Below the pieces are notes generated by a model. That model worked only from the letters and a program-made list of their open reading frames with translations, did not search any database and had not been told where the DNA came from. A stretch of DNA of 64,000 nt from Dehalococcoidia bacterium. Its GTDB lineage: Bacteria; Chloroflexota; Dehalococcoidia; UBA2979. Of the stretch, positions 42,421 through 46,772 are shown piece after piece. The stretch covers positions 3,232,001 to 3,296,000 of the forward strand of contig OZ244720.1 of assembly GCA_965219085.1 (NCBI GenBank), written 5' to 3'. How positions within the stretch are numbered: position 1 is the stretch's first letter; the number at the start of each line of letters is the position of its first letter. Made by a program: the position numbers and the translations under genes.

Positions 42421-43093
42421 CGTCGCGCCACCCTAGCAGGGTGCTGAAAAAGGCGCGGCCATCTGGCAGGATAGCGAAGGCGGCGGGGGCGTAGCCTGGG
42501 AGGCAGCCCCGTGCGAGGCGACGCTGAGCGTCAGACCAACATGTTGCTGGCGGTGACGCCGGACTCCTTCATCCCGGACGACCACCCGATCCGACGCATC
42601 AAGCCGATCGTCGATGCAGCGCTGCAGCGGCTCTCGCCGCTCTTCGGCACGATGTACGCAACGAGCGGGCGGCCCTCGATCCCGCCCGAGCACCTGCTCA
42701 AGGCGAGCCTGCTGATCGCGCTCTACTCGATCCGCAGCGAGCGCCAGTTCAGCGAGCGGCTGCGCTACGACCTGCTCTTCAAGTGGTTCTTGGACCTCAA
42801 CATCTCAGACGCGCCGTTCGACGCCTCGACCTTCTCCAAGAACCGCGAGCGCCTGCTCGCAGCCGATGTCGCGCGCGCCTTCTTCGCCGAGGTGGTGGCC
42901 GAGGCAAAGCGCCGCCGGCTGCTCTCGGCCGAGCACTTCACGGTGGACGGGACGCTGCTCGAGGCGTGGGCGTCGCTCAAGAGATGGCATGAGGGCCGGT
43001 CTCTTCCTCAAGGGGGATACTCGCCCCCGAAACAGCGGCCTCGATGGGCCAGAACGGCTCTTTGCGGAGCTTTGACGAGGTAGGAGACCGGCC

Positions 43094-44182
43094 GTGCAGC
43101 AGGATACCGCAACGACGTGGAGCATTGAGGGCAAGGAAGGGTCAGGGGTCACCATCGGCCTCGACGTGGGCGACCGCTACACCCACGTCCACGCCCTCGG
43201 CGCCGGCGGGGAGGTGGTACGTGAGAGGCGCGTCCGCACCACGACGGCAGCGCTGGGCATGGTGCTGACCGGCCTCCCCCCATCGCGGGTCGTGATCGAG
43301 GCGGGGCCGCGCTCGCCGTGGCTGAGCCGCCTCATGGCGGACCTCGGCCACGAGGTGGTCGTCGCCAACCCGCGCCAGGTCGCGCTGATCGCCGGCAGCC
43401 AGCGCAAGACCGACCGGCTCGACGCCGAGTGGCTGGCGCGGCTGGGGCGCTTCGACCCCCAGTTGCTCGCCCCGATCCGCCACCGCAGCGAGGCGAGCCA
43501 GCACGACCTCGCCGTGGTGCGCGCCCGCGACGCGCTGGTGCGCTCGCGGACGCTGCTCATCAACCACGTGCGCGGGGCCGTCAAGGCCTGCGGAGCCGCG
43601 TTGCCGTCGTGCACGGCCGAGGCGTTCCACCGCAAGACGGCGGACCACATCCCCGACGGGCTGCGCCCGGCGCTGCTGCCGCTGGTGGAGGCGATCGGCG
43701 AGCTGACCGCGCGCATCGCGGCGGCCGGCCGCGAGATCGAGGCGTTGTGCGAGGCTCACTCCGAGACCGCGGCGCTGCGCCAGGTCACGGGCGTCGGGCC
43801 GATCACCGCGCTCACGTTCGTGCTGACGATCGAGGATCCTGGGCGCTTCCCGAAGAACCGCGAGGTCGGCGCCTACCTCGGGCTCGTGCCGAGGCAGCGC
43901 GACTCGGGCGAGCGCACGCCGCAACTCGGCATCGGCAAGAGCGGCGATCCGCACCTGCGGCGGCTGCTGGTGCAGGCCGTGCACTACATCCTCGGCCCCT
44001 TCGGGCCCGACACCGACCTGCGCCGCTGGGGTGAGCGCTACACCGCTACGGGGGCCGGTAACGCGAAGAAGCGCGCCGTCGTGGGCGTCGCGAGGCGGCT
44101 GGCGGTGCTGCTGCTCGCGCTGTGGAAGACCGGCGAGGTCTACGAGCCGTTGCGCGACGCCGCGGCGCAGGAGGCCGCGTAG
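43094..44182 (+). CDS. IS110/IS1111 DEDD recombinase (transposase)
   Basis: IGLDVG, VIEAG, KTDRLDA, GVGPITA and YLGLVPRQRDSG motifs. Confidence 0.95.
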   Translation: MQQDTATTWSIEGKEGSGVTIGLDVGDRYTHVHALGAGGEVVRERRVRTTTAALGMVLTGLPPSRVVIEAGPRSPWLSRLMADLGHEVVVANPRQVALIAGSQRKTDRLDAEWLARLGRFDPQLLAPIRHRSEASQHDLAVVRARDALVRSRTLLINHVRGAVKACGAALPSCTAEAFHRKTADHIPDGLRPALLPLVEAIGELTARIAAAGREIEALCEAHSETAALRQVTGVGPITALTFVLTIEDPGRFPKNREVGAYLGLVPRQRDSGERTPQLGIGKSGDPHLRRLLVQAVHYILGPFGPDTDLRRWGERYTATGAGNAKKRAVVGVARRLAVLLLALWKTGEVYEPLRDAAAQEAA

Positions 44183-44521
44183 CAAGGCGCGGCGCCGAAG
44201 CAACCGACCAGGAGAGCGAGACTGAGACGGACCTGGGAGGAGGCCCAGCAAACCAACCACTGCACGTGATGCCGGGCAACGGGCGACTGCGAGGCGGTAG
44301 CGGTCCAACAAGGACGTTCAAGAGTTGGCAGCGCCCCCTGGAAGCAGGATGTGCCTTCATGCACCGGGCCCGATACGTGGCCCATCAAAGAGTGCGGATA
44401 GAAGCTCGGCACAGGCTCCGTCAGGGGACATCACGAGCGGATCGGCCCCGATGTCGAGGAGCGCCACGCCCCGAGGAGGAGGCCGCCACGTCGGCCTTGC
44501 AGAAAGACCGTCCCTCATAGA
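44183..44521 (+). ncRNA. Predicted bridge/seek RNA of the IS1111-type element
   Basis: Two stem-loops (44281-44336, 44350-44413) with loop segments matching the target (GGCGGTAGC, GTTCAAGAG) and donor (ATAGAAG); exact RNA ends unknown. Confidence 0.8.
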
Positions 44522-44675
44522 AGCTACCGCCCGCGCGACGAGCAGGAGCCACCCCTGGGCGGACGCAACCCGGATGTCGACTTCCGCGGGCGGCGGCGCA
44601 GCCGCGATACGCATAGTTCCGGCACGGACCCGGAGGCGCGGCTGTACACGAAGACACCCCCAGGACGCTAAGGGG

Positions 44676-45899
44676 TCAAGCAGCGAGGTCCTCGTGGGTG
44701 TAACGGTGTCCCCAGGCGGTCGTCTCGTCGTAGGGCAAGCGGCGCTTCAGGCAGCCATGTAGGTAGCCGACGAGACGGTTGCCGAGGGCGCGGAGCGCCT
44801 GGTGGTGGAGGTCGCCCGCGGCGCGCCGCCGATCGTAGAACTCGCGGCAGCCGGGGCTGGCCTGCAGGGAGCACAGCGCCCACTGGTCGACTGCGTCGTA
44901 GAGGCGCCGGTTGCGGACGAAGCGGGCTTTCACGGTGTGCTTGCGGCCGGATGCTACCGTCAGCGGCGACGTGCCGGCGTAGTTCCTGCGGGACTTCGCC
45001 GACTCGTAGCGTTCGGGGTCATCCCCGAACTCGCCAAGCACCCGGGCGCCGAGGACCACGCCGAGACCGGGCAGGGAACGGTAGATACCGGCGTCCGGGT
45101 GCTGCTCAAAATGGCTCGCGAGCTCGGCCTCGAGCTCCTTGATCTGACGGTTGATCTCGCCGATCACCCTCATTGCCGCACTGGTGCTCGCGGCGAATGC
45201 CTTGCTCACCGCGGGCGGAGCCTCGAGCTGCGGTGAGCGCAGCGCGTCGCGGACCTCGGCGGCGCGCCGCTCGATGTTGCGCCGGCGGCCGCCGCGGCGC
45301 AGCGCGGAGCGGATCTGGGTGATGCTCAGCCGCGCCGCCTCGCGCGGGCCAGGCGCTGTCGCCAGCACGCCCACCGCGTCGTCGTGCGCGAGGTCGGGGA
45401 AGGCCTCCAGCGCACCCGGAAAGTACTCCCTGAGCGCGTTGCGCAGCCGGTTGGTCTGGCGGACGCGGTCCCAGATCAACTGCTGGTGGGCGCGGGCGAG
45501 GATGCGCACCGCGGCGGCTTCGTCGCTGTCGCCGGCGACCTCCCGGTGGTTGTGCCGGTCGGTGCGGACGAGGTCGGCGAGCAGCTTCGCGTCGCCGGCG
45601 TCGGACTTGGCGCCGCCGACGTGGTGGCGGTCGCGGTAACGCGACGCCGAGCGCGGGTTGATGGCGTAGACGTGGTAGCCGGCCGCGAGCAGTGCCGCGA
45701 CCCAGGGGCCGCGGTCCGTCTCGATGCCGACGATCACCTCACCCGGCCCTGAGGCGTACCCGGCGACCAGTCCGTGCAGGGCAGTGATGCCCTCCACCCC
45801 TTCGGGCAGACGCCGGGCGGCGAGCCGCTCGCCCGCGTCGTTCATGAGATGGACGTCGTGGTGGTCTTCGGACCAGTCATCGCCCAGGTACAAGGCCAT
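44676..45899 (-). CDS. IS110 DEDD recombinase (transposase)
   Basis: LGDDWSEDHHD, GIETD, AKSDAGDA, SLPGLG and YAGTSPLTVASG motifs. Confidence 0.95.
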   Translation of the reverse strand: MALYLGDDWSEDHHDVHLMNDAGERLAARRLPEGVEGITALHGLVAGYASGPGEVIVGIETDRGPWVAALLAAGYHVYAINPRSASRYRDRHHVGGAKSDAGDAKLLADLVRTDRHNHREVAGDSDEAAAVRILARAHQQLIWDRVRQTNRLRNALREYFPGALEAFPDLAHDDAVGVLATAPGPREAARLSITQIRSALRRGGRRRNIERRAAEVRDALRSPQLEAPPAVSKAFAASTSAAMRVIGEINRQIKELEAELASHFEQHPDAGIYRSLPGLGVVLGARVLGEFGDDPERYESAKSRRNYAGTSPLTVASGRKHTVKARFVRNRRLYDAVDQWALCSLQASPGCREFYDRRRAAGDLHHQALRALGNRLVGYLHGCLKRRLPYDETTAWGHRYTHEDLAA

Positions 45900-46149
45900 C
45901 GTGTTTCAGTTCCTCTCCCGCTTCGCGCTGCTCGGTGCGACCCGGCGGGTTGGTTCCTGCGACGGCCTAATGGATCAGTGCTCGATGGCACGACACCCCA
46001 TGAGTGCTGCAGAACAACCCGGAATACCAGCAGGGGCTCGGTCTTCGTGAAGCGGTCCAGAAGCCGCAGGGATCAGCTGAGAGCTCACCGGCTGGCAGGG
46101 TCCAGAACCAGTCTGCCAGAGAACCTCTGGCCGCTGGTCGGGCCCCATT
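45900..46149 (-). ncRNA. Predicted bridge RNA of the IS110 element
   Basis: Target loop CTGATCCCT / CACGAAG around a GCGG/CCGC stem; donor loop GGGGTGTC / CCATTAG around a GTGC/GCAC stem; exact RNA ends unknown. Confidence 0.85.
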
Positions 46150-46772
46150 AGGGGTCGGGGCAGACGGCGAAGCTCAGCTACATGGGCCATCTGCTCACCG
46201 AGAACCGTCACGGTCTGGTGCTGGACGTGGAGTTGACCGAGGCGAACGGGTACGCCGAGCGCGAGGCGGCGGTCACGATGCTGGAGCGCAGCGTGAGCGG
46301 CTGCGGGACGCTGGGCGCCGACCGCGGCTACGACACGCGCGGCTTCGTGGCGGCGCTGCGCGCTCGCGGCGTGACGCCGCACGTGGCGCAGCACGACCGC
46401 GGCCGCCGCAGCGCCGTGGATGGGCGCACCACGCGGCATCGCGGCTACAGGCAGAGTCAGAAGCGGCGCAAGATCGTGGAGCAGGTCTTCGGCTGGATGA
46501 AGACCGTGGGCGGCGGGCGCAAGCTGCGCTTCGTGGGCCGCGAGCGCAACCGCTGTTGGCTGGAGCTCACCGCCGCCGCCTACAACCTCGTGCGCATGGC
46601 CACGCTCGAGACCGCCGCGGCGTAGGCGCAGTGCGCCCTCCGCCCCGCCAGGGAGCCCTCAGAGGCCCCCGGGGGCAGGTCAGGAGGCCACGATCACGAA
46701 CCCGGAGGCGGCTTGAAGCCGCCTCTCGCCACTCCGAGACCCCGGAAGGCGCTTCTTCAGCACCCTGCTAGC

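Follow-up and report, generated by a model that had tools for sequence, protein, structure and literature searches.

Organisation of the locus

The window analysed here is a stretch of 64,000 nucleotides (nt) from a Dehalococcoidia bacterium (contig OZ244720.1, positions 3,232,001 to 3,296,000 of the forward strand; G000:C1:3232001-3296000), and the genome that holds it, hereafter referred to as G000, consists of a single contig of 3.31 megabases (Mb). Within the window, the transposase gene of an insertion sequence (IS) of the IS5 family is interrupted by two elements of the IS110 family, an IS1111-type insert (hereafter A) and an IS110-type insert (hereafter B), both of which carry RNA guide segments that match the very sites at which they are inserted. 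The features of the locus, numbered from the first letter of the window, are listed below (aa, amino acids; bp, base pairs).

42433-42436, no strand: left CTAG target duplication of the IS5 host
42437-46767, plus strand: IS5-family host element, 1293 bp when restored; six uninterrupted copies elsewhere in the genome
42511-42983, plus strand: N-terminal part of the IS5 transposase (DUF772), cut after codon 157
42974-42983, plus strand: left half of the A target site in IS5, with the core AG at its end; matches the A guide at 44317-44324
42984-44523, plus strand: element A, IS1111-type, 1540 bp; subterminal inverted repeats, core AG
43094-44182, plus strand: A recombinase, 362 aa (PF01548 and PF02371)
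44183-44523, plus strand: non-coding end of A with the predicted guide RNA, downstream of the gene
44293-44301, plus strand: right-target guide of A, reverse complement of one core base and the 8 IS5 bases to the right of the site; 9/9
44317-44324, plus strand: left-target guide of A, in the same sense as IS5 left of the site including the core; 7/7 exact, 10 with one wobble
44351-44364, plus strand: probable right-donor guide of A, an imperfect match to the left end of A and the weakest of the assignments
44396-44405, plus strand: left-donor guide of A, matching the right end of A and the core
44524-44653, plus strand: middle piece of the IS5 transposase, 130 bp, between the inserts
44654-46151, minus strand: element B, IS110-type, 1498 bp; no terminal repeats, core CT on its own strand
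44676-45899, minus strand: B recombinase, 407 aa (PF01548 and PF02371)
45900-46151, minus strand: non-coding end of B, predicted bridge RNA with two internal loops, upstream of the gene
45967-45973, minus strand: right-donor guide of B, reverse complement of the core and the left end of B
45992-45999, minus strand: left-donor guide of B, matching the right end of B and the first core base
46043-46049, minus strand: right-target guide of B; 7/7
46069-46076, minus strand: left-target guide of B, 8 nt; 6 Watson-Crick pairs and 2 G.U wobbles with the IS5 site
46152-46625, plus strand: C-terminal part of the IS5 transposase (DDE_Tnp_1)
46768-46771, no strand: right CTAG target duplication of the IS5 host

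The host spans positions 42437-46767 and measures 1293 bp after removal of both inserts. It carries the DUF772 and DDE_Tnp_1 domains, terminal inverted repeats and a 4-bp duplication of the (C/T)TAG type, all of which place it in the IS5 family, and the source records of close homologues bear the name IS5 family transposase. The inverted arms together with CTAG, 20 nt each (42433-42452 and 46752-46771), are 95% complementary, as expected from the first-pass annotation of the window, which had described an IS5 with inverted repeats and CTAG on both sides. Excision of A and B with one core retained for each yields, again as predicted, a frame of 358 aa without internal stop, which agrees with the intact frame of five identical uninterrupted IS5 copies in the genome. 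The first-pass annotation had correctly recognised the two cuts but placed them 132 bp apart; the crossover points lie at positions 547 and 677 of the restored IS5, a spacing of 130 bp, the difference being due to the counting of the core dinucleotides. The right half-site of A opens the middle piece (44524-44653), whose last 7 bases supply that of B; the left half-site of B, read on B's own strand, is formed by the first 7 bases of the C-terminal part. The interrupted N-terminal frame continues into A as far as 43083, giving a product of 190 aa.

The first-pass annotation had described an IS1111-type element on the plus strand and an IS110-type element on the minus strand, and the domains, layouts, cores and strands of the two inserts agree with this. 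The dinucleotide AG is present at both junctions of A, whose gene is preceded by 110 nt and followed by 341 nt of the element. Its recombinase matches PF01548 (E-value 1e-18) and PF02371 (E-value 1.8e-19) and can be aligned, acidic and serine motifs included, with two transposases known from solved bridge-RNA complexes, those of ISCro4 and IS621. An inverted repeat of 7-8 nt lies a few bases inside both ends and is kept in all the paralogues; together with the domains, the downstream non-coding region and RNA segments that covary with the target, it assigns A to the IS1111 subgroup. Element B shows the opposite layout, in that 252 nt precede its gene and only 22 nt follow it; the dinucleotide CT, on the strand of B, is present at both of its junctions. 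Its recombinase matches PF01548 (E-value 2.7e-37) and PF02371 (E-value 4.1e-11), and in alignment with the IS621 transposase the acidic and Ser motifs coincide. The domains, the upstream non-coding end, the lack of terminal repeats, the 2-nt core and the two-loop bridge RNA are those of the IS110 subgroup.

Sequences and analyses

The restored IS5, A and B served as blastn queries for a census of copies over the complete G000 sequence, and the flanks of the copies were then inspected. Related genomes are designated by G-numbers (G004, G012, G013, G015, G017 and G022) and individual loci by L-numbers. Public sequencing data were used as contigs only, from four of 22 runs, the four belonging to four studies. 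For the A family, cognate and non-cognate matches between guides and flanks were compared in a matrix of six guide variants; the variants at 0.89 Mb and 2.85 Mb, in which the right flank partially duplicates the right end of the element itself, and the IS5-end variants of G015 and G017 are outside this matrix and were analysed separately. Relatives of B were searched for in 40 related genomes. The guides of the B family were compared over nine loci from nine genomes, namely B of G000 and L002-L009 (one locus per related genome), the latter being chosen from about 60 near-full-length B-relative places listed.

Copies of the elements in the genome

Each of the IS5 copies in G000 occupies a separate locus. 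Empty copies, which the first-pass annotation had proposed to look for, do occur: six are uninterrupted, all with the intact 358-aa frame, five of them identical and one with 17 differing positions. Composites carrying both A and B were found at three loci (the window, 1.20 Mb and 1.80 Mb), each bounded by flanks and a duplication of its own, copies with B only at two (2.24 Mb and 3.09 Mb) and copies with A only at two more (1.86 Mb, truncated, and 1.97 Mb), and an old IS5, 80-90% identical, carries an A paralogue at the usual position (0.34 Mb). The 4-bp flanks are identical in 11 of the 12 full-length IS5 copies (CTAG, once TTAG) and agree in 3 of 4 bases in the other.

Position 547 of IS5 is the site of all five copies of A (at least 99.7% identity), each oriented like the IS5 gene, and position 677 that of five of the six copies of B (at least 99.9% identity), which run antisense to it. 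The dedicated targeting of IS5 that had been proposed for both elements is thus upheld, with guides that match the two sites; the contrary outcome named by the first-pass annotation, copies mostly outside IS5, is not what the census returned. The sixth copy of B (G000:C1 166284-167780) is located outside IS5, and its site matches the right guide at 7/7 and the left guide at 5/8 positions. The frames beside this copy gave no Pfam match.

The backbones of the three composites are mutually near-identical, with 3-6 differences per 1293 bp, and are separated by 24-25 and 55-57 substitutions from the two B-only backbones and by 72-75 from the A-only copy at 1.97 Mb. Backbones carrying B differ mutually by 24-60 substitutions per 1293 bp and those carrying A by up to 75. 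The inserts themselves are nearly invariant, copies of B differing at no more than 2 positions and copies of A at no more than 4. Since diverged IS5 backbones carry near-identical A or B, each of the two elements has entered IS5 at least three separate times, and a chance match between guide and site is excluded by the use of the same two IS5 positions in 10 of the 11 copies genome-wide.

The resemblance among the composites could also be read as the outcome of a single ancestral double insertion, from which later IS5::A::B copies arose by trans-mobilisation or segmental duplication without any true targeting of IS5. Three loci with such similar backbones, each with its own flanks and duplications, would suit this explanation, two of the composites agree in derived states of the backbone and in an additional, likewise derived, G within B, and the five identical intact IS5 copies would be an available source of transposase. 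We nevertheless consider it improbable, given the A-only and B-only copies, whose essentially identical inserts sit in backbones 24-75 substitutions away from the composite, the B copy outside IS5, where the site has the right half-site in common, the guides, which match the sites and covary across the family, and column 411 of A, which conflicts with the backbone tree. Mobilisation of composites probably contributes but is not the whole story. It is reasonable to suppose that occupied IS5 copies may hitch-hike on the IS5 transposase, with which the three near-identical composites at separate loci are compatible; when this was examined through shared variants, the backbone and B agreed and one A site conflicted, the variable sites being few.

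That the inserts passed from one IS5 copy to another through homologous recombination or gene conversion, in place of repeated guided insertion, seems equally improbable. The IS5 copies are 92-100% alike and would be good substrates for recombination, and mosaics do exist, as seen in the 0.34 Mb A copy, which carries the guides of another paralogue, and in the right-end variants of IS5, which are patchily shared among the copies. In the B-only copy at 3.09 Mb, however, the IS5 markers from about 17 bp outward, to the left of B as well as to its right, belong to the empty-copy type, which counts against a spread by gene conversion: a conversion tract would need to bring in 1.5 kb of B with at most 16 bp of flank per side. 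Moreover, the state of the site beside B is the ancestral state of the related genomes, and conversion leaves both the guide complementarity and the B copy outside IS5 unexplained.

Several further observations concern the copies of A. The A-family element of the old IS5 (G000:C1 339850-342665) combines IS1380-directed guides with a left end like that of a third paralogue and is probably a mosaic produced by recombination between elements. The two A-only copies, although their IS5 backbones differ, share an insert of about 915 bp (99.8% alike; G000:C1 1859038-1859972 and 1972909-1973821), placed each time at a distance of 17 nt from A's right end; its frames gave no Pfam match, and it may either represent a further site-specific element or have moved together with A. 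Partial tandem copies of their own right end trail several A-family copies (2850056-2850740, 893331-893397 and 1261336 onwards), and a similar back-step within the right end of A is seen in one contig from the public runs.

Contigs from the public runs join across the empty A and the empty B sites of related IS5 copies. Scans for left junctions, which may have excluded records of the window's own genome, pointed to one locus for A in genome contigs and 12 loci for B in metagenome contigs. All 13 were rejected as chance matches, with no IS5, A or B homologue by blastn or tblastn.

Guide segments and their targets

The guide-like loop segments first noticed from the sequence alone stand as matches to both sites, at 44293-44301 and 44317-44324 in A and at 46069-46076 and 46043-46049 in B. 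When the seven A-family copies of G000 were aligned, the non-coding end proved to be conserved, with two hypervariable blocks flanking a conserved hairpin, and the relation between guide and target seen in A is also obeyed by paralogues and by relatives from five related genomes. Among the six variants of the matrix, the right-target guide matches its cognate flank over 5-9 nt (mean 7.5) as against a non-cognate mean of 3.3 and maximum of 6, and the left-target guide over 3-7 nt (mean 5.7) as against a non-cognate mean of 3.4, where the lone non-cognate match of 7 nt involves two variants with the same left guide. The probable right-donor guide is conserved in the paralogues and shifts together with the left end in the G015 relative.

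Full-length relatives of B with 82-86% identity are present in many copies each in 8 of the 40 related genomes, none of which holds a relative above 86% identity. The target of these relatives is a palindrome resembling repetitive extragenic palindromic (REP) sequences in six of the eight related-genome loci, and two variable blocks in the upstream non-coding end of the family change with the flanks. Every position of the 8-nt left guide is paired, by Watson-Crick or wobble pairs, in 8 of the 9 loci; for the right guide, of 7 nt, the match is without fault in 6 loci, with one mismatch in 2 and two mismatches in 1. In the consensus fold of the nine B-family sequences obtained with RNAalifold, each guide pair is placed in an internal loop around a hairpin, with compensatory changes in 5 of 46 pairs.

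The first-pass annotation had further considered both sites to fall on conserved motifs of the transposase. In an alignment of 121 proteins this holds for site A, where ten residues around the site show 98.6% conservation against 83% overall, whereas site B is only moderately conserved (72% against the same 83%).

That the two IS5 positions are structural or protein-recognised hotspots and the RNA matches coincidental, as might be argued from the shortness of the guide matches (7-9 nt) and from single-sequence folds that are not significant, is extremely improbable in view of the six A-family and nine B-family variants in which guides and flanks change together across quite different targets, such covariation being the signature by which bridge and seek RNAs were defined, according to the accessible parts of PMC11208160 and PMC11187229.

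Two observations on the element sequences may be added. The last 13-15 nt of A (44509-44523) resemble the IS5 sequence to the left of the A site (42969-42983), so that blastn alignments overrun into A; the resemblance may be a coincidence or a trace of target acquisition. In a scan against Rfam, the actinobacterial antisense small RNA Ms_AS-4 was matched above its gathering score (63.9 bits) at window positions 44994-45075 on the plus strand, inside and antisense to the B recombinase gene, and one further match was sub-threshold.

Occupancy of the target sites and possible escape

The IS5 copies of G000 fall into two groups with respect to the B site. All five copies with a site matching B are occupied by B, and none of the seven with a variant site is, the latter being the six uninterrupted copies and the A-only copy at 1.97 Mb. 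The variant site carries three shared substitutions within 4 nt of the core, one of which changes Ser to Ala; relative to the guides of B they add one true mismatch and turn two pairs into or out of wobbles. The B-matching site is the consensus of 120 homologues and is common in the genus, being present in 8 of 11 IS5 copies from six related genomes, where the three G017 copies are one base off. The occurrence of the variant in an intact and recently expanding IS5 lineage is thus likely to represent target-site escape, selection in this direction being what we infer from the sequences. Protection of the variant site from B is plausible, because a low tolerance of mismatches is reported for IS621 in the accessible part of PMC11208160.

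Proposed mechanism and its assessment

Taken together, the results suggest that A and B are RNA-guided elements of the IS110 family dedicated to two sites in the resident IS5 transposase gene, which they would reach via the known mechanism; we assign this reading a probability of about 0.88. Dedicated, RNA-programmed targeting of IS5 by two elements is well supported, and both elements look functional, with RNAs that would be expressed and recombinases that would be catalytically active. In each element, the target-binding guide segments would have become adapted to a specific stretch of about 14-16 bp in the IS5 transposase gene. The DEDD/Ser recombinase with its own RNA would pair the joined ends of the element with the IS5 site, and strand exchange at the 2-nt core (AG for A, CT for B) would result in insertion in one fixed orientation, splitting the IS5 gene. 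Insertion has taken place repeatedly and independently in different IS5 copies and B occupies every copy with the ancestral site; the intact, expanding IS5 lineage with three substitutions at the B site would then be a likely case of escape.

A number of observations weigh against this reading. With regard to the RNAs, the left guide of B pairs with its site only with the help of two G.U wobbles; taken alone, neither non-coding end folds better than its shuffled sequences (single-sequence z-scores of -0.24 and +0.14); and no bridge or seek RNA family of Rfam matches either end. Two A-family copies, the 0.34 Mb copy in the old IS5 and L053 in G017, are located at sites that their guides mismatch. 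The three composites may share one double insertion, in which case the raw copy counts overstate the number of events. No circle junction of A or B was seen among the contig joints listed, a further 32 joints being unlisted and contigs being unable to show absence. As regards escape, the variant adds only the one true mismatch besides the wobble changes, the seven variant copies are kin and so represent few independent events, and the A site is vacant in eight IS5 copies, six of which match both guides of A exactly; the five identical, evidently recent IS5 copies are among those with a vacant, exactly matching A site.

The silencing of IS5 by these insertions is doubtfully reversible, owing to reports of weak excision and of copy-out: in the accessible part of PMC13626964 excision is less efficient than insertion, and the available portions of 10.1101/2025.10.25.684509 and 10.64898/2026.08.31.748434 argue for a copy-out process in which the donor copy is kept. 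A role of the two elements as an anti-transposon system or in host defence is speculation.

Other targets of the A family

The broader targeting of IS genes by the A family is, in our judgement, the more interesting part of the case. An A paralogue, 87% identical and with other guides, is inserted in an IS1380-like element (PF13701), its three copies occupying a single position that leaves about 33 codons of the transposase frame before the stop (G000:C1 1259821-1261335, 1333208-1334569 and 1936773-1938287). Another paralogue (L036, G000:C1 2848476-2850005) interrupts the rve transposase gene of an IS3-like element at a conserved C-terminal motif, and ten further copies of that IS are uninterrupted and have exactly the sequence that both L036 guides predict. 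The left flank of a third (L037, G000:C1 891760-893321) is a 25-nt fragment identical to the B recombinase gene, at a motif conserved in the B family; the left guide of L037 matches the B-family site at 7/7, and for its right guide a match of 7 nt is found in the variant of that site carried by three relatives. The surroundings of L037 are rearranged, an unrelated IS being followed by a partial right end, a degenerate B-like copy and then an intact IS5.

Similar relations are found in the related genomes. In G015 an A relative with 77% identity has twice entered the right terminal repeat of the IS5 described here (L054 and L056), a site that its guides match; these IS5-end insertions of the A family lie 7 bp from the end of IS5, where the G017 copy (L053) is also inserted, without matching guides. 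In G012 (L031, G012:C1:1995372-1999899) an A relative is cleanly inserted inside a B relative, between the target and donor loops, with its right guide matching at 7/7. Altogether, six of the nine A-family guide variants examined aim at ISs; of the other three, one is directed at a palindrome, another at a short motif that recurs in unrelated contexts and the last at an unassigned repeat. An IS21-like end was considered as the repeat hit by A-like (G013, G012 and G004) and B-like (G022) elements but was not retained, the adjoining frame being only 55 aa in the locus inspected.

A further IS accompanies the IS5 of the window. An IS481-like element (46772-47826) abuts the right CTAG and carries a frame with helix-turn-helix and rve domains on the minus strand (46794-47768), and a second, solitary end of the same kind is present at 47894-48011. 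A relative of this element lies inside an IS5 of G013, beside the A site (L055).

It may tentatively be suggested, as a possibility that we hold to be rather less likely than its alternatives, that the IS1111-type family throughout the genus, joined in G000 by the IS110-type element, consists of RNA-guided 'transposon hunters' engaged in an arms race with other ISs, with guides that would radiate onto conserved coding motifs of IS5, IS1380-like and IS3-like transposase genes and onto the recombinase and bridge-RNA genes of the other subgroup. Saturation of the targets, as seen for B on IS5, would select for escape, occupied copies may travel by means of their unaltered ends through an intact IS5 transposase, and the 190-aa product could inhibit IS5 in trans. 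If this were true, the net effect on the host of the hunters and the 190-aa trans inhibitor would be transposon control.

The understanding of IS110-family enzymes is left unchanged by these results, the mechanism being the known bridge- and seek-RNA recombination. A single genome, however, presents all the states together, namely hunters, occupied targets, targets that match but stand vacant and a target lineage whose site has altered, and the related genomes supply the ancestral site and the earlier targets of the hunters, making a compact natural experiment on conflict between mobile elements. It raises the questions of how many mismatches or wobbles are needed for protection, how fast guides are re-aimed and whether a multicopy gene serves both as a harmless landing pad and as a ride. 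The case also carries a warning for annotation, in that nested ISs in IS-rich genomes can be specific and not accidental.

Comparison with known systems

IS1384, which is known as a target of an IS110-family element, is a member of the IS5 family. In Pseudomonas putida H, IS1383 integrates specifically into its inverted repeats (Muller, Lauf, Herrmann 2001; cited in PMC11208160), and is therefore likewise an IS110-family element with another IS as its dedicated target; its target, as far as the accessible text describes it, is a terminal repeat, whereas here the sites are inside the transposase frame and two subgroups converge on one IS. IS4321 and IS5075 are described, in the portions of the literature available, as targeting the repeats of the Tn21 family. 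The known IS1111-type system aimed at a transposon end resembles A in its subterminal repeats, downstream non-coding region, fixed orientation and choice of a mobile element as target. It differs in that the target is a transposon end and not a coding sequence and that no second element is present on the host, and no escape pattern was found described for it.

RNA guidance, the natural re-aiming of guides and the use of multicopy targets (REP and attC) are established (PMC11208160, PMC11187229, in their accessible parts). IS621, ISPpu9 and ISPa11, which insert into REP palindromes, share with B a bridge RNA with target and donor loops, a CT core and a multicopy target (accessible parts of PMC11208160 and PMC12288879); B in G000 differs from them in having been re-aimed from REP-like palindromes to the IS5 gene. 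The B copy outside IS5 recalls the off-target insertion at sites matching part of the RNA that is reported in the available portion of 10.64898/2026.08.31.748434.

A literature search, incomplete and without supplementary tables, found no description of IS110-family targets inside transposase frames, of two subgroups on one IS or of target-site escape, although natural targets within other ISs may be recorded in the supplementary tables that accompany PMC11208160 and PMC11187229. The 'natural reprogramming' of ISEc11 and ISXne4 (PMC11187229, accessible part) is closely comparable, these being close relatives whose guides and targets differ together, as here; in the present case, however, one genome holds at least four guide variants of one family, each aimed at the gene of a different IS family. 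IS110-family elements dedicated to other mobile elements are already in print, and the pair described here is a new example of such dedication and not a new mechanism.

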